From assembly GCA_964244175.1 (NCBI GenBank), contig CAXTHY010000009.1:29-64028 (forward strand): a stretch of 64,000 nucleotides of DNA, read 5' to 3'. A program made the position numbers and the translations under genes. This document shows positions 8,885 to 58,068 of this stretch, piece by piece. The notes under the pieces are model-generated. The model was given only the letters and a program-made list of their open reading frames with translations, had not been told where the DNA came from and searched no databases. The DNA is from an uncultured Jatrophihabitans sp. (GTDB taxonomy: Bacteria > Actinomycetota > Actinomycetes > Mycobacteriales > Jatrophihabitantaceae). Within the stretch, counting starts at the first letter, position 1. The number at the start of each line of letters is the position of its first letter.

Positions 8885-8953
8885 CGACACATCGGCCGAT
8901 GCCGCCGCAACCTGATGGCAACCGGGAAGATTCACCCGGCGGCGCGCGGCCCC

Positions 8954-9928: not shown

Positions 9929-10698
9929 GCCGACACCACCCCGAGCTCGACCAGCAGGTCGACGACGGCCGGCGCGGCCGCTGCGCCGCGACCGAGGACC
10001 TGCACGGTGCTCGGCCGGCGCGGCGGCAGCGTGAGTCGTACTCGCCGCGAGCCGCGGGGCTCGAGCGTCGGGGTCACCGTCTCGATCGGGGCGCGCTTGG
10101 CCTTCATCCGGCCGGGGATCGACGGGTAGCGCGGGCTGACGCCGCCCTCCATCACGGCCACGACGGCGGGCAGCGGCAGCTCGAAGATCTCGGTGCCCTC
10201 GGGTCCCTCGCCGCGGGCCACGGCGTGGTCGCCTGCGAGCTCGACCGTCGAGATGCCGGTGACCACCGGGCGGTCGAGTGCGTAGGCCAGCCGGATCGGC
10301 ACCTGGAAATCGCCGGTATCGGCGGCGTCGTTGCCGAGCAGGACCAGGTCGTAGGTCGTACCCGCGTCCTCATGGGCGCGCACCACGTCGGCGATCGCCG
10401 CAGCGACGTCGACCGGGCCGAAGCGCTCGGCGTCGGCCTCGATGAGCACACCGTCGGTGCAGCCGACCGCCAACGCGCTGCGCAGCTGCTCGACGGCCTC
10501 GGCCGCCCCGAGCGTCAGCACGGTCACCGTGCCACCGGACGCCTCGGCCAGCTGCGTCGCGAGCTCGACCGCGCACTCCTCGTGCGGGCTCACGGTGAAG
10601 CCGACGTGCCGGGCATCGACCGCCTGCTCGTCGGCGGTGAGCAGGACCTCCCCGGACACGTCCGGGACCCGCTTGATGCAGACCAGGATGTTGCTCAT
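9925..10698 (-). CDS. etfB: Electron transfer flavoprotein, beta (small) subunit
   Basis: 257 aa with N-terminus MSNILVCIKRVPD typical of EtfB/FixA. Starts 4 nt after the upstream dehydrogenase stop. Confidence 0.9.
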   Translation of the reverse strand: MSNILVCIKRVPDVSGEVLLTADEQAVDARHVGFTVSPHEECAVELATQLAEASGGTVTVLTLGAAEAVEQLRSALAVGCTDGVLIEADAERFGPVDVAAAIADVVRAHEDAGTTYDLVLLGNDAADTGDFQVPIRLAYALDRPVVTGISTVELAGDHAVARGEGPEGTEIFELPLPAVVAVMEGGVSPRYPSIPGRMKAKRAPIETVTPTLEPRGSRRVRLTLPPRRPSTVQVLGRGAAAAPAVVDLLVELGVVSA

Positions 10699-10702: not shown

Positions 10703-13219
10703 TCAGCTCCGGATCCGCTCGTTCTCGGGGTCGAACAGCGCGCTCGCGTCGGCCGCGGCGACCGTCACCGGGTAGCGCTCCTCGAAGTAGTCGACGGCGA
10801 GCTTGGTGCCGACGATCGCGGTCTCCGGCGGCAGGTAGGCCATCAGCACGTGCTGGCCCAGGGAGGGCGCCGAACCGGCCGTCGTGACGTAGGGGCGGTG
10901 CCCGTGGCCGTCGACCAGCGGCTCGCCGTCGGGGGTCACGATCGGCTCGCCGCCGAGCATGTAGCGCAACGTCCCGTCAGCCGACGTGTGGTCGTCGACG
11001 GTCAGCGAGCACAGCACCGCCTCGGGCGCGTTGTCACGCTGCTTGAGGTAGGCCTCGCGACCGACGAAGTCGGCGTCCTTCACCTTGGGTCGCATCATCC
11101 CGGCCTCGACGATCGTCCGCTCACTGTCGAGCTCGGCACCGTACGCGCGGTAGCCCTTCTCGATGCGGCCGGTCGTGCCGTAGACGCCGATGCCGACCGG
11201 CACCGCGCCGTGGGGCCGGCCGGCCGCCCGGACGAGGTCCCACAGGCGGGCGCCCTCTTCCATCGGGACGTACAGCTCCCAGCCGAGCTCGCCGACGTAG
11301 GAGATGCGCGAGGCCAGCACCGCCAGCGACTCGATCTCGAGATCGCGGCACGTCCCGAACTTGAACGCGTCGCCGCTGACGTCATCGGCGGTGAGCGCGC
11401 CGAGGATGTCGCGGGCCCGCGGGCCCCACAGCCCGATCGTGGTGAACGACGACGTGAGGTCGACGATCTGGGCCGAGCCGTCGGCCGGCAGGTGGTCGCG
11501 GAACCATTTGCGGTCGAGGTTGCCGTGCGCGCCGCCGGTGACCACGCGGAACCGGTCCTCGGCCAACCGCATGATCGTCAGGTCGGCGCGGAACCCGCCG
11601 CGCTCGTCGATGATCGGCGTGTAGACGACCTTGCCGGGCGCGACGTTCAGCTGACCGACGGCGATGCGTTGCACTGCGTCGAATGCGCCCGGCCCGACGA
11701 CGTCGAAGATCACGAAGGCCGAGAGGTCGACGTAGCCGGCCCGCTCGCGCATCGCGAGGTGTTCGGCGTTGATGATCGGCGACCACCAGCGCGCGTCCCA
11801 CTCGGCCGCGCGCGGCATGACGGCCGCGCCGTACTCGCCCAGCAAGGCTTCGTTCGAGGCGTACCAGTGGGGGCGCTCCCAGCCGGCCGTCTCGTAGAAG
11901 AAGGCGCCGAGCTCGCGCTGGCCGGCGTGCATCGGCGCCAGACGCACATCGCGATTGCTGCCCCACTGCTCGGCCGGGTGGATGATCCCGTAGGTCTTGT
12001 TGAAGCCCTCGCCGGTGCGGGCCCAGATGTGGTGCTTGGTGCGCTGGTGTGGGTAGAAGCGGGCGATGTCGGCGCCGTGCACGTCGATCTCGGGATTGCC
12101 GTCGGTCATCCACTCGGCGACGGTGCGTCCGACGCCCGGGCCTTCCTTGATCCAGACGGCCGCGGCCGACCAGACGCCCTTGACCTCGGGGCTCTCGCCC
12201 AGCACCGGCGCGCCGTCGGGGGTGAGCGACAGCAGGCCGTTGATGGCGTAGCGGATCTCGGCCGCCTCGTTGCCCAGCAGCTGCGGCATCAGCTCGAGGG
12301 CCTGCTCGAGCTGGGGGTCGAAGTCGTCTTCGGTGAAGGGCATCTCGGTCGGACTGAGCTTGGCCTGGTCGATGGACGGGATGTCCTCGGCGTCCATCAG
12401 GATCGCGCGGTGGGCGTAGGAGCCGACCTCCATATCGCTGCCGTGCTGGCGCTCGTAGCAGAACGTGTCCATGTCGCGCACGATCGGGTACGAGATCTCA
12501 CCGGGCTTGTCGGCCAGCTCGGGCACCGGGCCGACGCTGATCATCTGGTGCACCGCGGGCGTCAGCGGGATGTGCACGCCGGCCATCTTGGCCAGCTTCG
12601 GGCTCCAGACCCCGCACGCGATGACGACGGTGTCGGTGTTGATGTCACCGCCGCTGGTGCGCACGGCCCTGATCTGGCCGCCCTCGACCGTCATGGCCGT
12701 GACCTCGACGTTGGGGACGACGGTGAGGGCGTCGAGTGCCTGCGCCTTCTCGCGCATGATCGTCCCGGCCCGCAGCGAGTCGACGACGCCCACGCTCGGT
12801 GTGTAGAAACCGCCGATGATCACCGAGGGGTCGAGGAAGGGCACCTTCGCGGCGATCTGCTCAGGCGTCAGCAGCTCGGAGGCAATCCCCCAGGCCTTGG
12901 CGCTGGACATGCGCCGGCGCAGTTCCTGCATGCGCTCCTCGGTGCGGGCGACCTCGATGCCGCCGCATTCGGTGAAGACGTCCATTTCCTTGTACTGCCG
13001 CATGCTGTCGAGCGTCAGATCGGTGATCTCGCGCGAGTGGTCGACCGGGAAGATGAAGTTCGACGCGTGCCCGGTGGAGCCGCCCGGGTTCGGCAGCGGC
13101 CCTTTGTCGAGCTGCACGATGTCGCGCCAGCCGAGGCGGGCCAGGTGGTACACGAGGCTGTTGCCGACGATGCCGGCCCCGATCACCACGACCCGGGCGC
13201 TGCTCGGAACCGTTGCCAT
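10703..13219 (-). CDS. Dimethylglycine/sarcosine dehydrogenase-type flavoprotein (DAO FAD domain plus GcvT-like folate-binding aminomethyltransferase domain)
   Basis: 838 aa. VVVIGAGIVGNSLVYHLARLG (GxGxxG). STGHASNF resembles the covalent-FAD histidine region of this family. Long C-terminal GcvT-like region. First gene of an operon with etfBA. Confidence 0.85.
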   Translation of the reverse strand: MATVPSSARVVVIGAGIVGNSLVYHLARLGWRDIVQLDKGPLPNPGGSTGHASNFIFPVDHSREITDLTLDSMRQYKEMDVFTECGGIEVARTEERMQELRRRMSSAKAWGIASELLTPEQIAAKVPFLDPSVIIGGFYTPSVGVVDSLRAGTIMREKAQALDALTVVPNVEVTAMTVEGGQIRAVRTSGGDINTDTVVIACGVWSPKLAKMAGVHIPLTPAVHQMISVGPVPELADKPGEISYPIVRDMDTFCYERQHGSDMEVGSYAHRAILMDAEDIPSIDQAKLSPTEMPFTEDDFDPQLEQALELMPQLLGNEAAEIRYAINGLLSLTPDGAPVLGESPEVKGVWSAAAVWIKEGPGVGRTVAEWMTDGNPEIDVHGADIARFYPHQRTKHHIWARTGEGFNKTYGIIHPAEQWGSNRDVRLAPMHAGQRELGAFFYETAGWERPHWYASNEALLGEYGAAVMPRAAEWDARWWSPIINAEHLAMRERAGYVDLSAFVIFDVVGPGAFDAVQRIAVGQLNVAPGKVVYTPIIDERGGFRADLTIMRLAEDRFRVVTGGAHGNLDRKWFRDHLPADGSAQIVDLTSSFTTIGLWGPRARDILGALTADDVSGDAFKFGTCRDLEIESLAVLASRISYVGELGWELYVPMEEGARLWDLVRAAGRPHGAVPVGIGVYGTTGRIEKGYRAYGAELDSERTIVEAGMMRPKVKDADFVGREAYLKQRDNAPEAVLCSLTVDDHTSADGTLRYMLGGEPIVTPDGEPLVDGHGHRPYVTTAGSAPSLGQHVLMAYLPPETAIVGTKLAVDYFEERYPVTVAAADASALFDPENERIRS

Positions 13220-13249: not shown

Positions 13250-13265
13250 TGTTGCGTATCGTACA
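13250..13265. promoter_or_regulatory. Candidate IclR operator box A (TGTTGCGTATCGTACA), upstream of the dehydrogenase-etfBA operon
   Basis: 16-mer located 31 nt upstream of ATG 13219. It matches 15 of 16 positions of a box at 14191-14206. It is followed by CATCATGC, which also occurs next to box B. Confidence 0.45.
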
Positions 13266-13308: not shown

Positions 13309-13371
13309 CTTCTCGGGTGCTGAGCTGACCACTTTTCGCCGTCGAAAGTGGTCAGCTCAGCACCCGAGAAG
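13309..13371. repeat. Long perfect palindromic element (27-bp arms, 9-nt loop); also a likely terminator of the IclR gene
   Basis: CTTCTCGGGTGCTGAGCTGACCACTTT-tcgccgtcg-AAAGTGGTCAGCTCAGCACCCGAGAAG. A degenerate copy lies at 53176-53238 and arm-terminus motifs lie at 32526-32556. Confidence 0.85.
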
Positions 13372-13395: not shown

Positions 13396-14169
13396 TCAGG
13401 TGGGCTGCCAGCCGAGGCGGTGCGAGACCTCGCCGGCGGCCGTGACCAGGTCCGGCAGCACCTCGGCCACCCGCTCCTTGTCGAGGCGCAACGTCGGTCC
13501 GGACAGGCTGAGCGAGGCGACGATGTCGCCGTGCGCATTGCGGATCGGCGCGGCCACCGCGGTCAGCCCGACCTCCAGCTCGTCAATCGCCACCGCGTAA
13601 CCGGCGCCCCGCACCTCGTCGATCTCGCGCCGCAGCTGCTTCTTCGTCGTGATCGTCGCGTCGGTGTACGCAGCCAGGGTGCCGAGCGTCTCGTTGAGCT
13701 CGCCCGGGCTCAATTCGCTGAGCAGCACCTTGCCGTTGGACGTGGCGTGCAGCGGGATGTGCTGGCCGACCCAGTTGTGCGCCTGCAGCGACGACGCGCC
13801 GGCGACCTGATCGACATAGAGCGCCGAGTTGCCCGACAGCACGGCGATGTTCACCGTCTCGCCGGTGGTGGTCGCGAGCCGACGGCAGACGGGCCGAGCT
13901 TCCTGGACGACGTCGAGACGGGCCGTGGTCGCACCGGCGAGGCGCAGGATGCCCATGCCGAGGCGGTACTTGCCGCGATCACCGGCCTGCTCGACCAGCC
14001 CGGCGTTCTCCAACGCCGACACGAGCCGGAACGCGGTGCTCTTGTGCACGCCGATCTCGGCCGCGATCGCGGTGACGCCCTCTTCGCCGGCGCGGGCCAG
14101 GATATCGAGGATCGTCAGCGCCCGTTCCACGGACTGCACCCCGGACGGCGCGGCGTCGCTGTTGCTCAT
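13396..14169 (-). CDS. IclR family transcriptional regulator
   Basis: 257 aa. N-terminal wHTH (VQSVERALTILDILARAGEEGVTAIAAEIGVHKSTAFRLVSAL) plus an IclR-type effector domain. Confidence 0.9.
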   Translation of the reverse strand: MSNSDAAPSGVQSVERALTILDILARAGEEGVTAIAAEIGVHKSTAFRLVSALENAGLVEQAGDRGKYRLGMGILRLAGATTARLDVVQEARPVCRRLATTTGETVNIAVLSGNSALYVDQVAGASSLQAHNWVGQHIPLHATSNGKVLLSELSPGELNETLGTLAAYTDATITTKKQLRREIDEVRGAGYAVAIDELEVGLTAVAAPIRNAHGDIVASLSLSGPTLRLDKERVAEVLPDLVTAAGEVSHRLGWQPT

Positions 14170-14190
14170 TATGCGACACTAGCGCAGGCA

Positions 14191-14206
14191 TGTTGCGTAT
14201 CGCACA
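14191..14206. promoter_or_regulatory. Candidate IclR operator box B (TGTTGCGTATCGCACA) in the iclR/purU divergent region
   Basis: Near-identical to box A. It is flanked by two copies of ATGCGACA (14171-14178 and 14221-14228) and by TGCATCATGC. Confidence 0.45.
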
Positions 14207-14243
14207 CTCGGTTGTGCATCATGCGACAGACGAGAGGCCTGAG

Positions 14244-15110
14244 ATGACAGCCGCGCGGCACCCCGAGTACGTCCTGACCATCGTCTGCCCGGACCGCCCT
14301 GGCATCGTCTACGCCGTCGCGTCGTTCCTCGTGCACAGTGCGGGCAACATCCTCGAGAGCCAGCAGTACGACGACCGGATCGAGGAGCGCTTCTTCATGC
14401 GCGTCCACTTCGAGGTCTACGACGAGGCGATGACCCTCGACCGGCTGCGCCACGGCTTCCAGGCGGTGGCCGACGCGTCGCAGATGACGTGGCAGATGTG
14501 GGCGGCCGACGCGAAGTACCGCACGCTGGTGCTGGTCTCGAAGGAAGGCCATTGCCTCAACGACCTGCTCTACCGGCAGAGCATCGGCGCGCTGCCGATC
14601 GAGATCCCGGCCGTGATCTCGAACCACACGAGCCTCGAGCGGCTCGTCACCTCCTACGGGATCGACTTCCACCACGTCCCGGTGACGGCGGAGAGCAAGG
14701 CAGCGGCCGAGGCCGAGCTGATGGCGCTGGTCGACTCGCTCGGCATCCACCTGGTGGTGCTGGCCCGCTACATGCAGATCCTGACCGACGAGACCTGCGC
14801 CGCTCTACAGGGCCGAGCCATCAACATCCATCACTCGTTCCTGCCCTCGTTCAAGGGTGCGCGGCCCTACCAGCAGGCTTACGACCGCGGCGTGAAGCTG
14901 GTCGGGGCGACTGCGCACTATGTCAGCCCGGACCTTGACGAAGGGCCGATCATCGAGCAGGACGTGATGCGCGTCGACCACGCGCTCAGCGGCCCGCAGC
15001 TGGTAGCGGCCGGACGCGATGTCGAGAGCCAGGTGCTCTCCCGAGCGGTGCGCTGGCACGCCGAGACCCGCGTGCTGCTCAACGGCCACCGCACGGTTGT
15101 GTTCCGCTGA
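14244..15110 (+). CDS. purU: Formyltetrahydrofolate deformylase
   Basis: N-terminal ACT domain (LTIVCPDRPGIVYAVASFL) plus a formyltransferase core (INIHHSFLPSFKGARPYQQA, GATAHYVSPDLDEGPIIEQD). ATG 14244 is preceded by GAGAGG. Confidence 0.9.
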   Translation: MTAARHPEYVLTIVCPDRPGIVYAVASFLVHSAGNILESQQYDDRIEERFFMRVHFEVYDEAMTLDRLRHGFQAVADASQMTWQMWAADAKYRTLVLVSKEGHCLNDLLYRQSIGALPIEIPAVISNHTSLERLVTSYGIDFHHVPVTAESKAAAEAELMALVDSLGIHLVVLARYMQILTDETCAALQGRAINIHHSFLPSFKGARPYQQAYDRGVKLVGATAHYVSPDLDEGPIIEQDVMRVDHALSGPQLVAAGRDVESQVLSRAVRWHAETRVLLNGHRTVVFR

Positions 15111-15128: not shown

Positions 15129-16568
15129 TCAGTCGCCGAGTTCGGCCCGGCGGCGCACGACGTACTCCTCGAGCTCGGCCCGGATCGCGTCGTTGAGCGG
15201 CGGGGCCTCGTACTCCTCGAGCTTCTTCTGGTAGATCTTCGTTGCGCGCCCGGCCGCGTCGACCCCCCCGTTGCGCATCCAGCGCTCGTAGTTCTCCGAG
15301 GACGAGAGCAGCGGCCGGTAGAAGCAGGTACGGAAACGCTCCATGGTGTGCATCGCGCCCAGGAAATGGCCGCCGTGCCCGACCTCGACATGCGCACCGA
15401 AGGCCAGCGAGTCGTCGTCGATCTCGAGCGGGGTGAACTGCTCGCGCATCATCTGCAGCAGTTCGATGTCGACGATGAACTTCTCGTAGCCGGCGACCAG
15501 GCCACCCTCGAGCCAGCCGGCTGAGTGCATCACCCAGTTCGCCCCGGCGAGGAACGTCGGCATCAGCGTCATCAGCGCCTCGTAGCCGGCCTGCGCGTCG
15601 GGCACCTGCGACGACGTCATCGCGCCGCCGGAGCGAAACGGCAGCCCGAAGTGCCGGGCGATCTGCCCGGTGCACAGCAGGCCCATCGCCGACTCGGGCG
15701 TCCCGAACGTGGGCGACCCCGACTGCATGTCGATGTTGGACAGGAACGACCCGAAGACCACCGGGCAACCGGGACGGATCAGCTGCGAGAGCGCGATACC
15801 GGTCAGCGCCTCGGCGATCTGCTGCACCAGCGCCGCCGGGATCGTCACCGGCGACATCGCGCCCATCAGGATGAACGGGGTCAGCACGACGGCCTGGTTC
15901 GCGGCGCTGTACTCCATCTGCGCGTCGAGCATCCGGTCGTCCCAGCGCAGCGGCGAGTTGCAGTTGATCAGCGAGATCGTCGTCGGCGTCTGCTCGATGG
16001 CCGCGCGACCGCCGAACAGGATCGAGCTCATCTCGATGGTGTCGCGGGCGTTGACCCCGGACACGACGTTGCCCATGTAGATCTTGTCGGTCAGTGTCTG
16101 CAGCGCCAGCGTCATGTCGAGGTGGCGCGAGTCGAGCGGCGTGTCGTTGGGCTCGCAGATGACGCCGCCGGCCGAGTCGAGCACCCCGAAGGTCTGCGAG
16201 AGCTTGGTGAAGTTGCGGAAGTCCTCCATCGTCGCGTCGCGGCGCACCTCGCCCGCGCGGACGAACGGCGGCCCGTAGACCGCGCCGAAGGCCATCGAGT
16301 CGCCCCCGATGTGGATCGAGTTGGCCGGGTTGCGGGCGGCGACATCGAACTCGCGCGGGGCCTTGGCCACCTGTTCGAGGACGAACTCGGGGTCGAAGAA
16401 GACGGTGTTCTCCTCGACGCGCTGGCCGGCCTGGCGGAACAGTTCGAGCGCCGGCTCGGCCATGAACTCGACACCCACCTCGCTCACGAGCCGACGCCAG
16501 CCCGCGTCCAGCTTCGCCATCGCGTCCTGCGACAGGACCTCGTAGCGCGGCATGACGTTTCGGAACAT
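15129..16568 (-). CDS. MttB-superfamily (trimethylamine methyltransferase family) substrate:corrinoid methyltransferase, non-pyrrolysine type
   Basis: 479 aa from ATG 16568, with AGGAGG 6 nt upstream. Full-length similarity by eye to MttB/MtgB-type proteins (MFRNVMPRYEVLSQDAMAKLD...). The frame is uninterrupted, so there is no amber codon. Confidence 0.85.
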   Translation of the reverse strand: MFRNVMPRYEVLSQDAMAKLDAGWRRLVSEVGVEFMAEPALELFRQAGQRVEENTVFFDPEFVLEQVAKAPREFDVAARNPANSIHIGGDSMAFGAVYGPPFVRAGEVRRDATMEDFRNFTKLSQTFGVLDSAGGVICEPNDTPLDSRHLDMTLALQTLTDKIYMGNVVSGVNARDTIEMSSILFGGRAAIEQTPTTISLINCNSPLRWDDRMLDAQMEYSAANQAVVLTPFILMGAMSPVTIPAALVQQIAEALTGIALSQLIRPGCPVVFGSFLSNIDMQSGSPTFGTPESAMGLLCTGQIARHFGLPFRSGGAMTSSQVPDAQAGYEALMTLMPTFLAGANWVMHSAGWLEGGLVAGYEKFIVDIELLQMMREQFTPLEIDDDSLAFGAHVEVGHGGHFLGAMHTMERFRTCFYRPLLSSSENYERWMRNGGVDAAGRATKIYQKKLEEYEAPPLNDAIRAELEEYVVRRRAELGD

Positions 16569-16618
16569 CGGGTGCCTCCTTGACCTGGCTGGGTACGTCG
16601 CGCATCCTAACCCCGTAT

Positions 16619-16651
16619 TATGGAAGTGCAGTTCCATATTGTGAAACTGCA
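16619..16651. promoter_or_regulatory. Two interlocked inverted repeats in the mttB-like/iclR divergent promoter region
   Basis: TATGGAA-gtgcag-TTCCATA (16619-16638) and TGCAGTT-n11-AACTGCA (16627-16651), inside an unusually AT-rich stretch. Confidence 0.4.
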
Positions 16652-16677
16652 TCCTCGACGGTGGGACTCCGGAGACC

Positions 16678-17439
16678 ATGACCAACACGGGCGCACAAGC
16701 CGTCGACCGCGCGGCTCAGTTGCTGACGCTCGTCGTCCAGGCCGACGGGCCCATCACCTACACCGAGCTGGTCGAGGACGCCGGCCTGGCCCGCTCGACG
16801 ACCTCGCGCCTGCTCGCTGCCCTCGAGGCCAATCACCTCCTCGAGCGCGACGCCCACGGCGCCTACCGCTCGGGCGCACTGTTCGCGCTGTACGCGGCGC
16901 GCCACGATCCGTGGTCGCAGGTGGCCCGGCTGGCCGATCCGATCATGCGCACGGTCGGCGCGCTGACCGGCGAGACGGTGAACCTGGCCATCGCGCGTGG
17001 TGACGCCGTCGTGCAGATCGCGCAGGTCGACTCGACCTTCATGCTCAGCGCGCGCGACTGGATGCAGGTCGACGTCCCGCCGCACTGCTCGGCGCTGGGC
17101 AAGGTGCTCTACGCCTTCGGCGCGCTCGATTTGCCGATCGGCCGCCTCGAGCAACTCACGCCGCACTCGCTGCCGACGCCACAGGTGCTGGCGCGCGAGA
17201 TCGCGATCATCCGCCGGCGCGGCTACGCCGTCGCCCGCGAGGAACTGGAAATCGGCCTGGACGCCGTAGCCGCTCCCGTGCGCGGCACCGAGGGTGACGT
17301 CGTCGTCGCGCTCGGCGTGTCTGGCCCGAGCGCGCGCCTCGGTAAGAAAACCGACGAGATTGGACAGCTGCTGGTCGAGCATGCGAGCTCGCTGTCGCAG
17401 TTGCTCCGTCCCCGCATGCGAAAGAAAGGCGTGGCCTGA
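16678..17439 (+). CDS. IclR family transcriptional regulator (second copy)
   Basis: 253 aa. wHTH (AVDRAAQLLTLVVQADGPITYTELVEDAGLARSTTSRLLAALE) plus an IclR effector domain. Confidence 0.9.
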   Translation: MTNTGAQAVDRAAQLLTLVVQADGPITYTELVEDAGLARSTTSRLLAALEANHLLERDAHGAYRSGALFALYAARHDPWSQVARLADPIMRTVGALTGETVNLAIARGDAVVQIAQVDSTFMLSARDWMQVDVPPHCSALGKVLYAFGALDLPIGRLEQLTPHSLPTPQVLAREIAIIRRRGYAVAREELEIGLDAVAAPVRGTEGDVVVALGVSGPSARLGKKTDEIGQLLVEHASSLSQLLRPRMRKKGVA

Positions 17440-17440
17440 C

Positions 17441-18102
<662 letters not shown>

Positions 18103-18106
<4 letters not shown>

Positions 18107-18978
18107 CCACAACGCGTGAGACAAGGCTGCGCTCAGCCACCAAAGAGGTCGTCATCGGCCACGACCGGCCGTTCTGCCTGATCGGTGAGCGGATCAACCC
18201 GACCGGCCGCAAGATCTTCCAAGAGCAGCTGCGCGCCGGCGATCTGTCGGCCATCGAGCGGGACGTCGCGATGCAGGTGGCCGGCGGCGCCGACGTGCTC
18301 GACGTCAACATGGGCGTGCCACTGACCGACGAGGCCGAACTGCTGGCCAAGGCCGTCACGTTGATCCAGCAGCTCACCGACCTGCCGATCTGCATCGACT
18401 CGTCCGTCGTCGAGGCGCTCGAAGCCGGGCTCGCCGCCTACCACGGCCGGGCCCTCGTCAACTCGATCACGGCCGAGGACGACCGGATGGCCGCGATCCT
18501 GCCGCTGGTGAAGAAGTACGACGCGGCGATCATCGCGTTGCCGAACGACGCCGACGAGATCCCGATGGAGTCGGACAAGCGGCTCGACCTCGTGGGCAAG
18601 ATCGTCGAGGTCGCGACGACGGAGTACGGCATCGCGATCGAGGACATCGTCATCGATCCGCTGGCCATGCCGATCGGCGCCGACACCTCGCACGTGCAGA
18701 CGACGCTGACGACGATCCGCCGCATCCGCGACGAGTTCGGGTTGAACATGACCTGCGGCGCCTCCAACGTCTCGTTCGGCATGCCGGGCCGGCACCAGCT
18801 CGGCGCCGCCTTCCTGCCGATTGCGATGTCGGCCGGCCTGACCAGCGCGATCATGGATGCCCGGACGCCGCAGATCGTCGAGGCGGTCAAGGCCGCCGAC
18901 CTGCTGCTCGGTCACGACGAGTGGGGCATGGCCTGGATCGCGGCGCATCGGGCCCGGCAGGCTGCGGCCGCCACGTGA
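18103..18978 (+). CDS. Pterin-binding methyltetrahydrofolate:corrinoid methyltransferase (MtgA/MtrH/AcsE-like)
   Basis: 291 aa. Motifs: LIGERINPTGRK, DVLDVNMG, VNSI, CGASNVSFG. ATGA overlap with the corrinoid protein gene. Confidence 0.85.
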
Positions 18979-18988
18979 GTCACCCCAC

Positions 18989-20929
18989 GTGACCGAGCGG
19001 CCACCGGCCCTCGACGCCGACCTCGACAGCTACCGGCGCGAGGGCTTGATCGAACCTCCGGCGAACGCCGCCGAAAGCCGAGCCGCCGAGCACGACGGCA
19101 GCGGGCGCGTCGACCTGACGCTGCTGCCGGCGGGACGGACGGTGCGGGTCCCCCCGGGCGTGACGGTGTTCGACGGCGCGAGCTGGAACGGCATCGCCAT
19201 CGACTCGACCTGTGGCGGCCACGGCACGTGCAAGAAGTGCAAGGTGCAGATCGTCTCGGGGTCGGTGCCGGTATCGCGGCTGGACACCCGCGCGTTCACC
19301 GCCGACCAGCTGCGCGCCGGCTGGCGGTTGGCCTGCCTGGCCCAGGCGACGCAGCACCTCACCGTCGAGGTGCCGCCGCTGCTGACCCGGCCGAAGGCGG
19401 CCACCGTCGGCGTCGGCCGGCAGGTCATCCTGCGCCCGGCCGTGCAGAAGCGCTACGTCGAGCTCGGCGAACCGACGCTGACCGACCAGCGGCCCGACCT
19501 CACCCGGCTGCTGGCGGCCATCGACGACCTCGCACCGCAGCCCGACCTGCATCTGCTGCGGCGGCTGCCCACGGTGCTGCGGGCGGCCGACTACAAGATC
19601 ACCGCCGTCATCGTGGACGAGGCGCTGATCGACGTCGAAGCCGGCGACACGACGGCCCGGCAGTTCGGCATCGCCTTCGACCTCGGCACCACCACCGTCG
19701 TCGCCACGCTCGTCGACCTGACCACTGGCACGCCGGTCGCGGTGCGCTCGATGCTCAATCGCCAACAGCCCTTCGGCGGCGATGTGATCACCCGCATCAG
19801 CGCGACGATGATGGATCCCGAGGCGCTGGGCCGGCTGACGAGGGCGGCGCACGACACGCTGGCCGAGCTGGCGGCCGAGGTGTGCACCGAGGGCGAAGTG
19901 GCCCTGGCCGAGGTGTACGAGATCGCGGTCGCGGGCAACGCGACGATGACCGCGCTGGCGTTGGGCATCGACCCCGAGCCGCTCGGCGTCGCGCCGTTCG
20001 TCATGTCGTGCTCGACCCCGCCGGTGGTGCTGGCCAGCGACCTGGGCGTGCCGGTCCACCCGGGCGCGCGGGCGGTGACGTTCCCGGCCCTGGGCGCATA
20101 CGTCGGCGGTGACATCGTGGCCGGCATCCTGGCCACCGGCATGGACCGCGACAAGCGGCTGCGGCTGTTCATCGACGTCGGGACGAACTGCGAGATCGTG
20201 CTCGGCGACGGCGAACGCATCCTGGCCACGGCGGCGCCGGCCGGGCCGGCGTTCGAAGGCGGCGCGATCCGCTGCGGCATGCGCGCGGCCGACGGCGCGA
20301 TCGAGGTCGTGAAGCTCGGTGACGACGTCACCCTGGGCGTGATCGGCGACGTCACGCCGGTCGGGCTCTGCGGTTCGGGCCTCGTCGACGTCGTGGCCGA
20401 ACTGGTGAAGGTCGGCCTGGTCGACGCGTCCGGCCGGTTCGTCCCCGAAGACGCTGCCGCCACCATCGCGCCGGCGTTGGCCGATCGGCTGACCAAGGTG
20501 GGCGAGGAACGCGTCTTCATCCTGTACCGCCCGTCGCCGACGTCCGAGCCGCAGGACACCGTGTACCTCTCGCAGCGTGACATCCGCGAGTTGCAGTTCG
20601 CCAAGGCCGCCATCGCCACCGGCTGGGCGCTACTGGTCGAGGAGTTCGGGGTCGAGCCGCGTGAGGTGCAGCAGGTGCTGTTGGCCGGGTCGTTCGGCAG
20701 TTACCTGTCACCCTCGTCCGCGATCCGCATCGGTTTGGTGCCCAAGCTGCCCGTGCTGCGCATCGTCTCGGCCGGCAACGTCGCCGGCGAAGGGGCGAAG
20801 ATGGCCTTGCTGAGCCGCCGCGAACGCGAGGGCGCAGCCGCGCTGCTTGAGGAGGTGCGCTATGTCGAACTCTCCGACCGGACCGACTTCAACGACAAGT
20901 TCGTCGACCAGCTCGCCTTCCCGGGCTGA
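18989..20929 (+). CDS. RACo-type reductive activase of corrinoid proteins (2Fe-2S ferredoxin domain plus ASKHA ATPase-like domain)
   Basis: N-terminal CGGHGTCKKCKV...LACL cysteine pattern. C-terminal ASKHA-like motifs FDLGTTTVV and IDVGTNCEIVLG. GTG 18989 lies 10 nt after the previous stop. Confidence 0.8.
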   Translation: MTERPPALDADLDSYRREGLIEPPANAAESRAAEHDGSGRVDLTLLPAGRTVRVPPGVTVFDGASWNGIAIDSTCGGHGTCKKCKVQIVSGSVPVSRLDTRAFTADQLRAGWRLACLAQATQHLTVEVPPLLTRPKAATVGVGRQVILRPAVQKRYVELGEPTLTDQRPDLTRLLAAIDDLAPQPDLHLLRRLPTVLRAADYKITAVIVDEALIDVEAGDTTARQFGIAFDLGTTTVVATLVDLTTGTPVAVRSMLNRQQPFGGDVITRISATMMDPEALGRLTRAAHDTLAELAAEVCTEGEVALAEVYEIAVAGNATMTALALGIDPEPLGVAPFVMSCSTPPVVLASDLGVPVHPGARAVTFPALGAYVGGDIVAGILATGMDRDKRLRLFIDVGTNCEIVLGDGERILATAAPAGPAFEGGAIRCGMRAADGAIEVVKLGDDVTLGVIGDVTPVGLCGSGLVDVVAELVKVGLVDASGRFVPEDAAATIAPALADRLTKVGEERVFILYRPSPTSEPQDTVYLSQRDIRELQFAKAAIATGWALLVEEFGVEPREVQQVLLAGSFGSYLSPSSAIRIGLVPKLPVLRIVSAGNVAGEGAKMALLSRREREGAAALLEEVRYVELSDRTDFNDKFVDQLAFPG

Positions 20930-21521
20930 GGCCGCGGGGCGACGGGTCGCGTTGATCGCCTGCGGTGCGCTGGCCCAGCCGGCCGAGCAGATCGCGGCGC
21001 GGCGCGGGTGGCCGGTCGACGTCCACCCGCTGCCCCCGTTGCTGCACAACCAACCGCAGTTGATCGCCGGGCAGGTGGAAGCGTTGGCGGCGCAGTTGCA
21101 ACCGCGCTACCGCTCGGTGGTGGTCGGTTATGCCGACTGCGGGACGTACGGCGCGTTGGACGACGTGTGCGCGCGGCTCGGTCTGCAGCGCCTCGGCGGC
21201 CTGCACTGCTACGACGTGTTCGCCGGCGCTGATCGGCTGCGCGCGTTCTTCGCTGCGCAGCCGGGGACGTACGTGCTGACCGACTTCCTGGTGCGGTCCT
21301 TCGCCCGGACGGTCGAGCGCGAACTCGGCCTCGACCGCTATCCCGAGCTGCGCGACACCTACTTCGGTAACTACACCCGCGTGGTATGGCTGGCGCAGGA
21401 GCCCGACGACGAGTTGCGCGCACTGGCCGCCGCGGCCGCCGCCCGGATCGACCTGCCGCTGACCGTCGTCGACACCGGCACGGACGGGCTGGAACGCGAG
21501 CTGGCCGCGCTGCTGCGCTGA
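20862..21521 (+). CDS. DUF1638 domain protein (function unknown)
   Basis: Motifs: RRVALIACGAL, VVGYADCGTYGALD. ATG 20862 has AGGAGG 6 nt upstream and overlaps the activase 3' end by 68 nt in another frame. Confidence 0.7.
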   Translation: MSNSPTGPTSTTSSSTSSPSRAEAAGRRVALIACGALAQPAEQIAARRGWPVDVHPLPPLLHNQPQLIAGQVEALAAQLQPRYRSVVVGYADCGTYGALDDVCARLGLQRLGGLHCYDVFAGADRLRAFFAAQPGTYVLTDFLVRSFARTVERELGLDRYPELRDTYFGNYTRVVWLAQEPDDELRALAAAAAARIDLPLTVVDTGTDGLERELAALLR

Positions 21522-21528
21522 GCCCGGC

Positions 21529-22386
21529 TCAGGCGTCGACCGACGCGCCGAGTCGGTGCAGCAGGCCGCGGCGCCACTGCTCGGTCTCGGCCACCTGATT
21601 GAACGTGAACACGTGCAGGCCCTCGACCCGCGCGTCCGGGGCGGCCAGCGCCGGGGCCAGCTTCTCGAGGAAGCGCTCGCCGGTGAATCCGCCGGGCGCG
21701 GCCAGCCGGGTGAGCGTGCGCCGGTGCTTGGCCAGGAACTTCGTCGACTCGCCCACACCGATCTTCGTCGCCATCAGCACCAGCTTCGTGCGATCCACCG
21801 GCCCCGGCACACCGACCAGCAGCGGGATGGTGATCCCGCGCCCACGCATCCGGCGCAACCACGTCTGCACCAGGGCCGGGTCGAAGGTCAGGTTGCTGAC
21901 CACCTGGGTGGCGTGCCGGCGCTTGTCCCACATGGCCTGCACGGTCAGGTCGTCGTGGATCGACGGGTGCGACTCGGGATAACCGGTGACGCCGACGTTC
22001 GGGAACGGCCGGCCGAGGGCCTCGAGATCCTCGAGCAGGTCGAGGGCGGCGTGGTAGTCACCGGCTGGCGGATCGGCGTCGCCGGCCGGCACGAAGATCG
22101 TCCGCACGCCGGCGGCCCCGAGCCGGTCGCTGATCTCGGCCAACTCGCTTCGCCCGGACACCATCCGGGCGGCCAGGTGGGGCACGACCTGGTACCCGTG
22201 GCCGGCGAGCCGCTCGGCCAGGTCGAGCGTGGCCGCGATTCCCTTCGACGGCGAGGCCGTGATCGTGACGGTGAATCCGGCCGGCAGGTGCTCCAGCACC
22301 GCCGCCTCGGCCGCAGCAGTGGGCAGCACCTCGTAGCGGACGTGGGTCAGCAGCCGGCGCAGCGTCTCAGTAGTCTTGTTGCGCAT
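21529..22386 (-). CDS. metF: Methylenetetrahydrofolate reductase
   Basis: 285 aa from ATG 22386. MetF-like TIM-barrel sequence (SPSKGIAATLDLAERL..., GVTGYPESHP, LTFDPALVQTWLRRMRGRGITIPLLVGVPGP). Confidence 0.8.
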   Translation of the reverse strand: MRNKTTETLRRLLTHVRYEVLPTAAAEAAVLEHLPAGFTVTITASPSKGIAATLDLAERLAGHGYQVVPHLAARMVSGRSELAEISDRLGAAGVRTIFVPAGDADPPAGDYHAALDLLEDLEALGRPFPNVGVTGYPESHPSIHDDLTVQAMWDKRRHATQVVSNLTFDPALVQTWLRRMRGRGITIPLLVGVPGPVDRTKLVLMATKIGVGESTKFLAKHRRTLTRLAAPGGFTGERFLEKLAPALAAPDARVEGLHVFTFNQVAETEQWRRGLLHRLGASVDA

Positions 22387-22433
22387 AATGCAACTCAATT
22401 CAAATGATGCTACTAATCTTGGCCAGCATACCG

Positions 22434-24137
22434 TCAGTGCTGCGCGGCGAAGTCCTGGCCGCGGATGGTCACGAAGGCGATGACGCCCGCGGCCAGAGCG
22501 ACGATCGCGGCCACCAGCAGGATCAGGTTCAGCCCCGACGCGAACGCGTTCGTCGCGATGCTGCGAACCGTCCCGCGGGCCGAGTCCGGCAGCTTGGTGA
22601 TCACCTTCGCTACCGCCCCCGATTGGATGGCGGTCGCCAGCTCCTGGCCGTGTCCGCGCAGTGCCGACACCCCCGAGACCCGCGAGAGCACCTCGCTGCT
22701 GACGCGCGAGGAGAACAGTGAGCCCAGCATGGCGATGCCAGTGGCGATGCCGATCTGCCGGAACGTCGCGTTGATGCCGGACGCCATGCCGGCCTGGGCC
22801 GGTTTGACGACCCCGATCGCGGTCGAGGCCAGCGGCGGGTTGACCAGCCCGACCCCGATGCCACTGACGATCAGCCCGGGCACCAGGTGCGTCCAGACCG
22901 TCGACGCGTCCAGGCCGCGCATCAGCAACAACCCCACGCCGACAAGCACCAGCCCGGTGCCGATCAGCGCGCGGACCGGAACGTGCCCGCTGGCCCGGCC
23001 GGCGATCGTCGCGGTGACCAGGATGCCGCCGGACAGCACGAGGAGCCGCAGACCGGTCCCGAGTGCGTCGAAGCCGAGCACGTCCTGCAGGTAGAGCACG
23101 AAGTACAGCAGCAGCGCGAAGATCGACGCACTGAGCCCGAATGCTGCCACCGCACCGCCGGTGAAGGTCGGTTTAGCGAACAGGCCGAGGTCGAACATCG
23201 GCGCCTTACTGCGCAGTTCGACGCCGACGAACAATGCCAGCAGCACGCCGGCGGCGATCAGGCAGGCGACGACGCGGGTGGTGCCGAACGAGGTTTCCGA
23301 CGACTCGATCAGCGCGTAGATCAGGCTGGCCAGCGCGGCGGTGAAGATGACGAAGCCGACCCAGTCGGGACGACGGGCCTGCGGCGCCTTTGACTCGGCG
23401 ACCCGCAGTATCGTCAGCACGATCGCCACGGCACCGACTGGCAGGTTGACGAAGAAGATCCACCGCCACGACAGGCCCGAGGTGAGCACGCCCCCCAGCA
23501 GCGGGCCGAGGGCTACCGCCAGCCCGGTGATCGCGCCCCAAATGCCGAAGGCCACGCCGCGGTCCTTGCCGCGGAACGCGTCGGCCAGCAGCGCCAGCGA
23601 CACCGCGAACATAATCGCGCCGCCGAGGCCTTGCAGTCCGCGCGAGAGCTGCAGCATCAGCGTGTCCTGGGCCAGCCCGCACAGTAATGAGGCCGCGCTG
23701 AACACGGCCAGGCCGACGACGTAGAGGCGGCGGCGACCGTACAGGTCGGCCAGGCTGCCGGTGGTGAGCAGCAGCGAGGCCAGCGTCAGCGCGTACGCGT
23801 CGACGACCCATTGCAGGTCGGAGAAGCTGGACCCGAGCGCCGACTGGATGTCCGGCAGCGCCACGTTCACGATCGTCACGTCGAGCAGCAGCATGAAGGT
23901 GCCGAGACATACGGCGACCAGCGTCCACCATTTGTGCGGCTCGGGTCCGGTGCCCTTCGCCTTCGGCGGCGCCGCGGAACGGCCGCCGGCGGACGAAGCC
24001 GGCGACGCCGTTGCGTCGCCGGTCTCGCGCTCGACCAATTCGGCCACCGAGACCGGTGCGGCCGGGTGCTCGTGACGGCCGGCGGTGGGCTCTGGCGAAC
24101 TAGCTTGCGGTGAGTCGGTCACACTTTGCTCCAGCAC
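22434..24137 (-). CDS. MFS transporter, DHA2 family, with a hydrophilic N-terminal extension
   Basis: 567 aa, GTG start. WWTLVAVCLGTFMLLLDVTIVNVALPDI and LADLYGRRRLYVVGLAVF are typical DHA2 motifs. About 14 predicted TM segments. Confidence 0.8.
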   Translation of the reverse strand: MLEQSVTDSPQASSPEPTAGRHEHPAAPVSVAELVERETGDATASPASSAGGRSAAPPKAKGTGPEPHKWWTLVAVCLGTFMLLLDVTIVNVALPDIQSALGSSFSDLQWVVDAYALTLASLLLTTGSLADLYGRRRLYVVGLAVFSAASLLCGLAQDTLMLQLSRGLQGLGGAIMFAVSLALLADAFRGKDRGVAFGIWGAITGLAVALGPLLGGVLTSGLSWRWIFFVNLPVGAVAIVLTILRVAESKAPQARRPDWVGFVIFTAALASLIYALIESSETSFGTTRVVACLIAAGVLLALFVGVELRSKAPMFDLGLFAKPTFTGGAVAAFGLSASIFALLLYFVLYLQDVLGFDALGTGLRLLVLSGGILVTATIAGRASGHVPVRALIGTGLVLVGVGLLLMRGLDASTVWTHLVPGLIVSGIGVGLVNPPLASTAIGVVKPAQAGMASGINATFRQIGIATGIAMLGSLFSSRVSSEVLSRVSGVSALRGHGQELATAIQSGAVAKVITKLPDSARGTVRSIATNAFASGLNLILLVAAIVALAAGVIAFVTIRGQDFAAQH

Positions 24138-24245
24138 TCGGCAGGATCCGTTGACGTGTCTACGGTACGTAGTCGTGCCCCGGAACGGGACGGCGATGCG
24201 CTCCGGGGCGGCCGGTCACCAGGCCGCCGGTGACAAGGCGCGGGC

Positions 24246-25196
24246 TCAGCCGACGGTGATCGCGTCCAGCCGCTCGCGCAGGAAGTCGGCCGAGCGCACC
24301 GGCCGGTGTTGGTTCGGCCGGCCGACGGGGGGCGGCAGCGCCTCGATCGTCGCGTCACGGTCAGCCTCGTAGAAGTAGACGAGCGAGACGAGGTCCTCGT
24401 CCGGCGCCGCGGCCTGCGGCGGCAGCACGCGATGCCGGTTCGACGTCCACCGGTCACCGCTCCACCGGGCGAGCAGGTCGCCGGTGTTGACGGTGAACGC
24501 GTCAGGCACGAACGGCGCGTCCTCCCAGCCGTCGGACTCGGTCCACACCTGCAGGCCGCCCTTACCCGGCTCGCGATCGAGGATCGTCACCGTGCCGAAG
24601 TCGGTGTGCGGACCGATGCGGTACTGGCCGTCCTCGGGGGCGCCGGTGACCCCCATCGGCGGGTACCAGTTGATGTTCATGGTGTGCGTCGCGTGCTGAG
24701 TGTGCCGGGTGAAGAAATCGGGCTCCAGGCCCAGCGCCGTGCCGCACAGGCGCAGCAGTTCGTCGGCCAGCGTCTTCATCGTGTGCAGGTACTGCGTCAC
24801 CGCCGGCTCGAGGGCCGGCACCTCGGCCGGGAACACGTTGCGCTGGAACCAGTAACCGTCCAGCGGTGCGGTCGTGTCGTCGGCGCCGACGGAGAACGAC
24901 TCCTTGAGGTCCGGCGGCGTCTCGGTGCCCTCGGCGTAGCCGTTGGCCTCGACGCCCGGCGGCAGCCAGCCGCGCCCGGCCACCGTCACCGCGTAGGGCT
25001 GCTTGGTCGCCGCAGGCAGCGCGAAGAACTCGCGGGCGGCCGAGCGCAGCGCCGTGCGCGCCTGCGCGGTCACGCCGTGCCCGGTGATCAGGAAGAAGCC
25101 GACGTCCTGCAGCGCGGCGTCGACCTGGGCCGCAACCGGGTCGCGGCCGGTCCCGTCGAACCACGGTTGCAGGTCGATCACGGGCACGTGTGTCAT
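24246..25196 (-). CDS. 2-oxoglutarate/Fe(II)-dependent oxygenase, isopenicillin-N-synthase-like family
   Basis: MTHVPVIDLQPWFDG (DIOX_N-like), HTDFGTVTIL (HxD) and distal NRHRV. The ATG shares one base with the upstream stop (TGATG). Confidence 0.85.
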   Translation of the reverse strand: MTHVPVIDLQPWFDGTGRDPVAAQVDAALQDVGFFLITGHGVTAQARTALRSAAREFFALPAATKQPYAVTVAGRGWLPPGVEANGYAEGTETPPDLKESFSVGADDTTAPLDGYWFQRNVFPAEVPALEPAVTQYLHTMKTLADELLRLCGTALGLEPDFFTRHTQHATHTMNINWYPPMGVTGAPEDGQYRIGPHTDFGTVTILDREPGKGGLQVWTESDGWEDAPFVPDAFTVNTGDLLARWSGDRWTSNRHRVLPPQAAAPDEDLVSLVYFYEADRDATIEALPPPVGRPNQHRPVRSADFLRERLDAITVG

Positions 25197-25645
25197 CAGT
25201 CGACTCCGATGTCCTCGTTCCAGATGTCGGGGTGCGCGGCGATGAAGTCGGTCATCATCTGCACGCACGCCAGGTCGTCGAGCAGCACGACCTCGACGCC
25301 GTTCTCGGCCAGCCAGTCGTGCCCACCGTAGAACGTCCGCGCCTCGCCGATCACCACGCGTGAGATGCCGAACTGCCGGATGAGTCCGCTGCAGTACCAG
25401 CAGGGCGAGAGCGTCGTGACCATCGTCGTGCCCCGGTACGACGGCTGCCGGCCGGCCGCCTTGAACGCCGCGGTCTCGCCGTGCAGGGACGGATCGCCGT
25501 CCTGGACGCGCCGGTTGTGGCCGCGGCCGAGCACCACACCGTCGCGGCCGACGAGCGCGCCCCCGATCGGGACGCCGCCCTCGGCCAGTCCGGCCCGCGC
25601 CTCGTCGACGGCAACAGCCAGCCAGGCGTCGTAGTCCTCGCTCAC
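25196..25645 (-). CDS. CMP/dCMP-type zinc deaminase (Fcy1/cytosine-deaminase-like nucleobase deaminase)
   Basis: 149 aa from GTG 25645. Motifs: HGETAAF (HxE) and PCWYCSG (PCxxC). GTGA overlap with the permease gene. Only the last 149 codons of ORF 25196..26953 are used. Confidence 0.85.
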   Translation of the reverse strand: MSEDYDAWLAVAVDEARAGLAEGGVPIGGALVGRDGVVLGRGHNRRVQDGDPSLHGETAAFKAAGRQPSYRGTTMVTTLSPCWYCSGLIRQFGISRVVIGEARTFYGGHDWLAENGVEVVLLDDLACVQMMTDFIAAHPDIWNEDIGVD

Positions 25646-27081: not shown

Positions 27082-27182
27082 GGCGCATACCTTTCACCCG
27101 CGTTGTGTCGTGCGGGTTACGAACCGCGCGAGACAGGGTTGCGATGGATGAGGACCGCACCCACGAGGGGCACGATGGAAGC

Positions 27183-37297: not shown

Positions 37298-37330
37298 GAT
37301 GCGGCTCCCTGACTCGGTGACCGCACAACT

Positions 37331-38341: not shown

Positions 38342-38368
38342 CACTATCCCGCGGGTAGGACAGGACGC

Positions 38369-41244: not shown

Positions 41245-41289
41245 TCGCGGTGCCTGCACGCGAATCTGCGTGCAGGCACCGAGATCATC
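41240..41289. terminator. 22-bp-arm hairpin between convergent operons (probable bidirectional terminator)
   Basis: GATGATCGCGGTGCCTGCACGC-gaatct-GCGTGCAGGCACCGAGATCATC, with one arm mismatch. It starts at the amidase stop codon, and the creatininase gene ends at 41323. There is no U-tract. Confidence 0.55.
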
Positions 41290-41322
41290 AAGCAGTGGGA
41301 CGCGCCGGCCCGCCACGAACCT

Positions 41323-46313: not shown

Positions 46314-46363
46314 ATGTGCTCCTCTGGAAGGTGGCCGGGACGGCCGTGATGGGTGTGCAGTGA

Positions 46364-58026: not shown

Positions 58027-58068
58027 CCGCGCCGAGCCGGTAGGTTCGCTGGTCGTGAGGAGCGATCG

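Follow-up and report, generated by a model that had tools for sequence, protein, structure and literature searches.

A probable aerobic, cobalamin-dependent glycine betaine demethylation cluster of the MtgB/MtgC/MtgD type in Jatrophihabitans and related Actinomycetota

Introduction

What does a corrinoid methyltransferase system do in an aerobic actinobacterium, and which methyl donor does it use? This question is raised by a 64,000-nt stretch of the Jatrophihabitans sp. contig CAXTHY010000009.1 (hereafter the window), in which a first-pass annotation had described seven adjacent genes at 15129-22386 as such a system, built around a non-pyrrolysine MttB-family enzyme. Our computational analysis indicates that this cluster is probably the actinobacterial branch of the aerobic glycine betaine demethylases that depend on cobalamin (MtgB/MtgC/MtgD type), feeding the tetrahydrofolate (THF) one-carbon (C1) pool. 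It adds a further lineage to a system already known, and the mechanism itself is not new. The features specific to the lineage are a regulation by IclR-family proteins with conserved operators, a different methylenetetrahydrofolate reductase (MTHFR), and a neighborhood in which no methionine-synthase module was found. In soil, both glycine betaine and choline serve as major osmolytes and as substrates rich in nitrogen. Full-text literature searches gave no biochemical or genetic characterization of an actinobacterial cluster of this kind, and the earlier claim that it had not been described biochemically survives.

Results

The cluster encodes a predicted corrinoid-dependent methyl transfer system

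The window has a uniformly high GC content (68-75%) and its coding frames are clear by third-position GC. All seven genes of the cluster are supported by Pfam, in agreement with NCBIfam and PDB sequence searches, and the profile-HMM (hidden Markov model) searches matched every family concerned (MttB, B12-binding, pterin, RACo, DUF1638 and MTHFR). The first-pass assignments of the seven genes are thus borne out. We counted synteny over the 80 best loci from the closest genomes, all of them Actinomycetota. A chance origin of the cluster is excluded because E-values go down to 1e-186 and the gene order is kept in 65-73 of these 80 genomes. The kept core consists of mttB, divergent from iclR-corrinoid-pterin methyltransferase-RACo-DUF1638, with the MTHFR gene convergent (convergent to DUF1638 in 65/80 loci). 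This answers positively the question of whether the neighborhood is conserved across Actinomycetota; the absences from the core block are mostly contig ends, or homologues under the match threshold.

The first gene, on the minus strand (15129-16568), encodes a non-pyrrolysine, MtgB-like member of the MttB superfamily, predicted to be a glycine betaine:corrinoid protein Co-methyltransferase. It matches MTTB (PF06253) with 619 bits over profile positions 25-500 of 500, near full-length. As previously noted, its frame is uninterrupted: a single 479-aa open reading frame (ORF) has no internal stop and no in-frame UAG, and AAGGAGG precedes its ATG. On the plus strand, the operon opens with the regulator gene iclR1 and continues with the gene of an MtgC-like corrinoid protein (17441-18106; B12-binding_2 PF02607 and B12-binding PF02310), whose ATG lies 1 nt past the IclR TGA. 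This protein carries the DxHxxG His-on motif as GDVHDIGKN at residues 101-109 (DVHDIG at 102-107). Its best NCBIfam match is MtgC_2 (207 bits), although it stays under the cutoffs of both MtgC models. In the PDB it matches the Moorella protein 1y80 (191 bits) and MttC 7xcn (144 bits), and it shares 47% identity with the B12-binding protein of a Paracoccus cluster described below.

The third component is a pterin-binding methyl-corrinoid:THF methyltransferase with the MtgA/MtgD role (18103-18978, plus strand; Pterin_bind), whose gene overlaps that of the corrinoid protein by ATGA at 18103-18106. It scores 314 bits against NCBIfam PRK07535, a methyl-THF:corrinoid methyltransferase model with a cutoff of 259, and 140 bits against MeTr 2yck. 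It is followed on the same strand by a RACo-type, ATP-dependent reductive activase of the corrinoid protein (18989-20929), with four Pfam domains in order (Fer2, RACo_linker, Raco_middle and RACo_C_ter) from the N-terminal [2Fe-2S] ferredoxin to the C-terminal ASKHA domain, and with CGGHGTCKKC at residue 75. Residues 47-642 match Carboxydothermus RACo (3zyy) over its full length with 323 bits. The DUF1638 gene (20862-21521, plus strand) and the MTHFR gene (21529-22386, minus strand) complete the cluster. The junctions described by the first-pass annotation, an AGGAGG ribosome-binding site (RBS), the 1-nt gap and the ATGA overlap, were all found, and the RACo start at GTG 18989 was confirmed; other starts are possible for DUF1638 and probable for the neighboring purU gene (see below). 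Domain matches and flanking genes also support the four-part corrinoid architecture and the THF-C1 context proposed initially. We consider it highly likely that the cluster performs corrinoid-dependent quaternary-amine:THF methyl transfer.

Relation to aerobic and anaerobic systems

The architecture had been taken in the first-pass annotation to be limited to strict anaerobes. This premise is outdated, as MtgB/C/D-type sets are found in the aerobic Ruegeria and Phaeobacter and on a Paracoccus plasmid. In Ruegeria pomeroyi, proteomics and knockouts showed that MtgB, MtgC and MtgD, together with RamA, DUF1638 and MetF2, demethylate glycine betaine; the MtgBCD component set is induced on glycine betaine, and growth on this substrate depends genetically on mtgC and mtgD (Mausz et al., 2025; PMC12478193). 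The same study reports co-located mtg clusters from other aerobes and attributes 5% of the mtgC reads from the ocean to Actinomycetota (PMC12478193). In Phaeobacter inhibens, also aerobic, genetics published in 2018 described a MetH split into three parts, together with a RamA-like protein and DUF1638 (PMC5764234), and an mtgB1 knockout exists (bioRxiv 10.64898/2025.12.19.695462). Metagenomic work notes Actinobacteriota expressing mtxB genes, classed as anaerobic methylotrophy.

All six components of the set of Mausz et al. (MtgB, MtgC, MtgD, a RamA/RACo-like protein, DUF1638 and a second MTHFR) are present and adjacent in the window, and the cluster resembles the aerobic MtgBCD systems of Ruegeria and Phaeobacter in its components, in its aerobic host and in its tie to dimethylglycine (DMG) demethylation and THF C1 oxidation. 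On plasmid p1 of Paracoccus methylovorus, mttB is divergent from the genes of B12-binding, DUF1638, MTHFR, pterin methyltransferase and ASKHA proteins, the divergence of mttB being shared with the window, and five window proteins are 32-47% identical to their counterparts in this cluster (BLASTP). The systems differ in their hosts, Pseudomonadota for the aerobic MtgBCD sets and Actinomycetota here, and in their regulators, of the GlxA/GbdR type there and a pair of IclR proteins with their own operators in the window. Unlike the aerobic MtgBCD systems, the window cluster has all its genes in one tight locus.

An anaerobic relative is the MtgB/MtgC/MtgA system of Desulfitobacterium hafniense, which, as in the window, uses a separate corrinoid protein and a methyl-corrinoid:THF methyltransferase. 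Its MtgB (2qne/9yce; PMC13080624) is a non-pyrrolysine MttB-type TIM barrel that can be aligned with the window protein over the full length, at 40% identity and with equivalents of Y97, R312 and H348 kept. However, D. hafniense is a strict anaerobe and the window protein has Gly in place of F356 and Trp at 352. The NCBIfam MtgA model barely matches the window pterin methyltransferase (19 bits), which is rather MeTr/MetH-like, and the window corrinoid protein stays below the MtgC cutoffs, as said above. Eubacterium limosum possesses the MttB-superfamily quaternary-amine:corrinoid methyltransferases MtpB, MtcB, MtyB and MthB, which share one corrinoid protein and one activase, but these enzymes serve other substrates and belong to an anaerobic acetogen. 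The RACo of C. hydrogenoformans has the same four-domain architecture as the window RACo. Its partner is CoFeSP, whereas that of the window RACo is a small MtgC-type corrinoid protein; unlike its C. hydrogenoformans counterpart, the window RACo is translationally coupled to DUF1638 and belongs to an aerobic host.

The corrinoid protein, pterin methyltransferase, RACo and DUF1638 might instead form primarily a split methionine synthase (methyl-THF to corrinoid to homocysteine) as in Phaeobacter, mttB being only a neighbor or a secondary methyl input. The MtgC/MtgD/RamA-like/DUF1638 set is indeed indispensable for the synthesis of methionine in P. inhibens and R. pomeroyi (PMC5764234; PMC12478193). 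We regard this alternative as very unlikely for the window. A homocysteine-binding module (MtgE, S-methyltransferase domain) was not seen in the approximately 57 window ORFs scanned, nor in the few flank genes scanned at two of the related loci (L003 and L009), and these genes therefore give no indication of a dual role in methionine synthesis. In addition, a pathway-type IclR regulator stands first in the operon, which diverges from mttB with a shared operator, and the constant neighbors belong to catabolic C1 metabolism, namely PurU and an MTHFR closest to the methyl-THF-oxidizing type.

Substrate of the MttB homologue

Source annotations name this PF06253 protein 'trimethylamine---corrinoid protein Co-methyltransferase', as do most database names. 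Apart from these names and the PF06253 membership, the observations speak against a trimethylamine enzyme. The score against TIGR02369, the equivalog model of pyrrolysine (Pyl)-containing MttB, is 273 bits for a cutoff of 525; no MtgB-specific NCBIfam model matched the protein. The protein matches 4yyc with 426 bits and D. hafniense MtgB (2qne/9yce) with about 390 bits, compared to only 117 bits for the Pyl-MttB 7xcl. The frame has no amber codon, and the Pyl position of 7xcl (X334) aligns with Met317; among the 80 homologues, the equivalent position is Leu in 72 and Met in 8. A trimethylamine methyltransferase identity was rejected on the TIGR02369 score, the 7xcl score and Met317, and we find it hardly tenable.

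We propose that the substrate is likely glycine betaine and the product DMG. In the structure of betaine-bound MtgB, Y97, R312, H348 and F356 are the betaine-binding residues (2026 study; PMC13080624). The equivalents of the carboxylate-binding R312 and H348 and of the aromatic Y97 are invariant in the window protein and the 80 homologues. The first-pass annotation held that the methyl donor could not be read from the sequence, which is too pessimistic, as the window context and 64/80 related loci point to glycine betaine. In these 64 loci, the gene of a second IclR-family regulator (IclR2) is followed by those of an aldehyde dehydrogenase, a GMC oxidoreductase and an ATP-binding cassette (ABC) transporter with an OpuAC glycine-betaine-binding domain. 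BetB and BetA take choline through betaine aldehyde to betaine, and OpuA takes up betaine. From their domain content, the IclR2-linked genes are a predicted choline-to-betaine module plus uptake (betB-like, betA-like and opuA-like).

On the other side of the reaction, the window encodes a homologue of DMG oxidase/dehydrogenase (DMGDH; 10703-13219, minus strand) with an FAD domain and a THF-binding GcvT domain (DAO, FAO_M, GCV_T and GCV_T_C). This 838-aa protein scores 540 bits with the DMG oxidase of Arthrobacter (1pj5) and 289 bits with mammalian DMGDH, and is predicted to perform the second demethylation, from DMG to sarcosine and methylene-THF. Its gene is co-operonic, with 4-nt gaps or overlaps, with those of electron-transfer flavoprotein (ETF) beta (9925-10698) and alpha (8954-9928), all within 8954-10698 on the minus strand with ETF and ETF_alpha domains, and ETF is the predicted electron acceptor of the DMGDH homologue. 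Among the 80 loci, this DMGDH-ETF operon is shared only with the two closest relatives, L001 and L002 (a Jatrophihabitans metagenome-assembled genome). The conversion of glycine betaine to DMG is thereby bracketed as the reaction of the MttB homologue, with betaine formation and import encoded on its substrate side and DMG consumption on its product side.

Several observations weigh against this assignment. The equivalent of F356, the second cation-pi aromatic residue, is Gly in 80/80 homologues, with an invariant Trp at 352, four residues earlier. The identities of the MttB homologue are roughly equidistant (40% with D. hafniense MtgB, 44% with 4yyc, 47% with the Paracoccus homologue and 43% with a Sinorhizobium paralogue), and therefore the sequence establishes no orthology to a betaine-specific enzyme. 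A WLEGGL motif, which stands in the place of F356, is common to the window protein, 4yyc, the Paracoccus homologue and the Sinorhizobium paralogue, the last from another genomic context. No betA, betB or opuA gene was found beside the cluster in the window itself. Taken by itself, the protein sequence leaves the substrate unfixed.

These points bear on the possibility that the same machinery serves an enzyme specific for one or more other quaternary amines, such as proline betaine, carnitine, gamma-butyrobetaine, choline or phosphocholine. Paralogues in the MttB superfamily have come to act on many different substrates while sharing one corrinoid protein (PMC12478193; PMC13080624). The actinobacterial clade is just 40-47% identical to any comparator, F356 is unconserved in it, and the MTHFR gene of the window is flanked by unexplained 2-oxoglutarate (2OG)-oxygenase, NCS1 and major facilitator superfamily (MFS) genes. 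The Sinorhizobium paralogue carries the same WLEGGL motif and sits beside genes of the mandelate racemase and Xaa-Pro peptidase families and of a glycine betaine ABC-transporter binding protein, a context that we take to resemble proline-betaine or hydroxyproline-betaine catabolism. In contrast, the conserved neighbors in Actinomycetota are betaine-forming, OpuAC-importing and DMG-consuming genes and not genes for carnitine, proline-betaine or butyrobetaine; the MFS gene is present in 8/80 loci and the 2OG-oxygenase and NCS1 genes in 0/80; and the cluster contains a single MttB paralogue. Another quaternary amine is thus an unlikely substrate, and glycine betaine remains the one that we favor.

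We had considered WLEGGL as a betaine signature and rejected it, as the Sinorhizobium paralogue of different context carries it too. From the sequences compared, the motif is taken to mark the aerobic branch and not a substrate. That paralogue is encoded on plasmid pC101c of Sinorhizobium sp. C101 (locus L082, 11914-22378) together with a GlxA regulator, Xaa-Pro peptidase-like and mandelate-racemase-family proteins and a betaine-type ABC transporter, which suggests a different substrate.

Distribution and PurU

The MttB homologue is 82-91% identical across Nocardioides, Marmoricola, Pimelobacter, Jatrophihabitans, Geodermatophilaceae and Dactylosporangium, and relatives are encoded in at least 570 species-representative genomes. 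A search of plasmids gave 196 matches, all below 60% identity; the organisms tallied were Alphaproteobacteria, and plasmid-borne actinobacterial copies, a candidate that we considered, were absent among these 196 matches. Upstream of mttB, the plus strand carries the gene of the formyl-THF deformylase PurU (14190-15110), which scores 334 bits against TIGR00655 (cutoff 286) and adjoins mttB in 62/80 loci. Its start is probably ATG 14244 and not 14190 because 14191-14206 is a conserved operator. PurU and the DAO/FAO_M/GCV_T protein with ETF beta and alpha upstream were found as the first-pass annotation had described these flanks. Beyond the ETF genes, the ORF at 8054-8935 gave no family match and no conservation across related loci.

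The MTHFR-family protein

The MTHFR-family protein (PF02219) is predicted to oxidize 5-methyl-THF to 5,10-methylene-THF. Its match to PF02219 is weak (33 bits, over a cutoff of 24), and its best PDB match is S6MTHFR of Sphingobium lignivorans SYK-6 (7xg9), with 113 bits against 33 bits for Thermus MetF (1v93/3apt). S6MTHFR oxidizes methyl-THF, rejects NAD(H) and defines a 'type 4' family accompanying THF-dependent demethylases (2025 study; PMC11868366). As in the window, its gene is placed beside a methyl-THF-producing demethylase; however, the corrinoid-dependent partner listed in that study is CmuAB, whereas the window partner is of the MttB type (PMC11868366).

The signature residues of S6MTHFR lie in loop beta2-alpha3, helix alpha8 and loop beta8-alpha11 (L48, P49, R78, F215, C219, P268 and F269). 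Only two of the seven, P49 and F269, are kept in the window protein, a point against our reading, and the protein is a candidate type 4 member. The substitutions are L48 to S, R78 to M, F215 to M, C219 to I and P268 to T; at position 48, the Ser matches neither S6MTHFR (Leu) nor the NADH-using enzymes (Gly). A flavin-free mycobacterial MTHFR of the MSMEG_6649 type was also considered and rejected: the PDB matches did not include 7WMW/7WMZ and were headed by 7xg9. By BLASTP, the window MTHFR has no similarity to the MTHFR and MTHFR-C-terminal pair of the Paracoccus cluster. On these comparisons, the MTHFR step is filled non-orthologously relative to that cluster.

The DUF1638 protein

The DUF1638 protein (PF07796, 74 bits) is a putative accessory of corrinoid reactivation. 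Genetic data from P. inhibens link DUF1638 to the RamA-like protein by cofitness and show that the split MetH needs it to make methionine (PMC5764234). The gene overlaps the 3' end of the RACo gene, and its start at 20862 was qualified by an alternative: ATG 20862 has the better RBS (GAGGAGG), and TTG 20952, the start of the source gene call (P0121), gives 189 aa. The Ser/Thr-rich N-terminal extension falls in the overlap with the conserved RACo 3' end, and we suspect that its apparent conservation stems from this overlap.

We modeled the protein with AlphaFold (AF2, 40 homologues) and obtained a pLDDT of 89.6 and a pTM of 0.83. Compared with the PDB, the model gave no fold match passing E = 0.001 (best E = 0.018, TM < 0.31). 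H32, D62-C63 and H85-C86 are conserved from Actinomycetota to Paracoccus, which suggests that the His/Cys residues may form a metal or redox site. A four-Cys cluster was initially considered and dropped, as Paracoccus keeps only C63 and C86, with H32 and H85.

Regulators and candidate operators

The two regulators are encoded by iclR1 (16678-17439, plus strand; HTH_IclR and IclR_C) and iclR2 (13396-14169, minus strand; IclR_C, 155 bits). IclR1 adjoins the cluster in 79/80 loci and the iclR2 gene is likewise present in 79/80. Between the divergent mttB and iclR-mtgC units, we identified a putative shared operator/promoter region at 16604-16650, with a core palindrome (GTTCCATATTGTGAAAC) at 16631-16647. 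The consensus of this palindrome, TTCCAYRWYRTGGAAC, stands at the corresponding place between the two genes in 60/80 loci with at most 1 mismatch, and in none of the shuffles.

A second core, TGTTGCGTATCGCA, distinct from the mttB/iclR1 palindrome, was detected upstream of iclR2 in 34/80 loci with at most 1 mismatch (0-1 in shuffles); in these 34 loci the core stands upstream of iclR2-betB-betA-opuA. The window contains just 2 matches to this IclR2-type core, and 5 of 100 shuffles reach 2. One candidate copy lies in the iclR2/purU divergent gap (14191-14206, TGTTGCGTATCGCACA) and the other upstream of the DMGDH-ETF operon (13250-13265, TGTTGCGTATCGTACA). PurU, DMGDH-ETF and, elsewhere, betB/betA/opuA may accordingly be viewed as one putative regulon beside the methyltransferase operon.

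A long, terminator-like hairpin with a perfect stem of about 21 bp was read off the sequence at 13316-13365 (GGGTGCTGAGCTGACCACTTT ... AAAGTGGTCAGCTCAGCACCC), where it separates the 3' end of iclR2 from the DMGDH promoter; it is probably a bidirectional terminator or insulator. A palindrome, GTTGCGCATAATGCAAC, at 22376-22392 includes the start codon of the MTHFR gene and lies on the edge of an AT-rich, 47-nt gap that follows the MFS gene. It resembles the GTTGCG half-sites of the IclR2-type operator and may put MTHFR under the IclR2-type regulator. No B12 riboswitch or other RNA matched Rfam at the gathering threshold across the whole window.

Proposed pathway and its implications

We propose a pathway in which the MttB-family enzyme would move one N-methyl group of glycine betaine to the Co(I) of the corrinoid protein, giving DMG and methyl-Co(III). 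Glycine betaine demethylation would be oxygen-independent in an aerobic actinobacterium. The pterin-binding methyltransferase would then hand the methyl group to THF, and the MTHFR-family protein would oxidize the resulting 5-methyl-THF to methylene-THF; further oxidation would lead to formyl-THF, which PurU would split into formate and THF. The DMG oxidase/dehydrogenase homologue would take the second methyl group as methylene-THF, with the electrons passing to ETF. In oxic conditions the cofactor is expected to undergo frequent adventitious oxidation to Co(II), which RACo would repair in an ATP-dependent reduction that runs via its [2Fe-2S] domain; DUF1638 would be its putative obligatory partner. 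IclR1 would control the divergent mttB and iclR1-mtgC-mtgD-raco-duf1638 units, and IclR2 would control purU and the DMGDH-ETF operon and, in other genomes, betB/betA/opuA.

A broader reading, which we regard as possible rather than probable, is that this clade is the principal, hitherto unassigned first step of glycine betaine/choline catabolism in aerobic soil Actinomycetota. This step would be cobalamin-dependent, with a dedicated catabolic module not shared with methionine synthesis and a new methyl-THF-oxidizing MTHFR subtype, and DUF1638 would be a His/Cys metal-dependent partner of novel fold that lets a RACo maintain Co(I) in air.

If the glycine betaine assignment is true, the cobalamin-dependent route of marine proteobacteria would reach a second phylum and soils (Nocardioidaceae, Jatrophihabitans, Geodermatophilaceae and relatives), leaving the known mechanism unchanged, and soil betaine turnover would be tied to cobalt/B12 supply. 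Thousands of 'trimethylamine methyltransferase' annotations would then be wrong, and metagenomic counts of such genes as markers of anaerobic methylotrophy would be affected. The function of DUF1638 and the electron acceptor of methyl-THF oxidation would become testable in culturable aerobes.

Other features of the window

Beside the MTHFR gene, the region 22434-28199 encodes an MFS transporter, a 2OG-Fe(II) oxygenase of the DIOX_N type, an NCS1 permease and an aldo-keto reductase, the last, like the oxygenase and the permease, in 0/80 related loci. Further catabolic genes for small nitrogen compounds were observed at 33589-42099. They encode, on the minus strand at 33589-37300, an amino-acid permease with the ethanolamine ammonia-lyase EutBC; at 37331-39856, an arginase-family enzyme with an NCS1 permease; and at 41323-42099, a creatininase. 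The Paracoccus cluster (L081) likewise has a creatininase gene in its vicinity. The region 45135-50233 has ambiguous overlapping frames and a lower third-position GC, and frameshifts or mis-called starts are possible there. Its genes encode an ABC permease, an ABC ATPase, an amidohydrolase and a 344-aa ORF weakly matching DUF5981 (MTHFR C-terminal domain). Unrelated neighbors at 30102-32374 and 55762-60456 include a pcaB-like lyase with a hydrolase/CMD fusion (PcaL-like), a GGDEF-EAL protein and a CHAT-domain protein.

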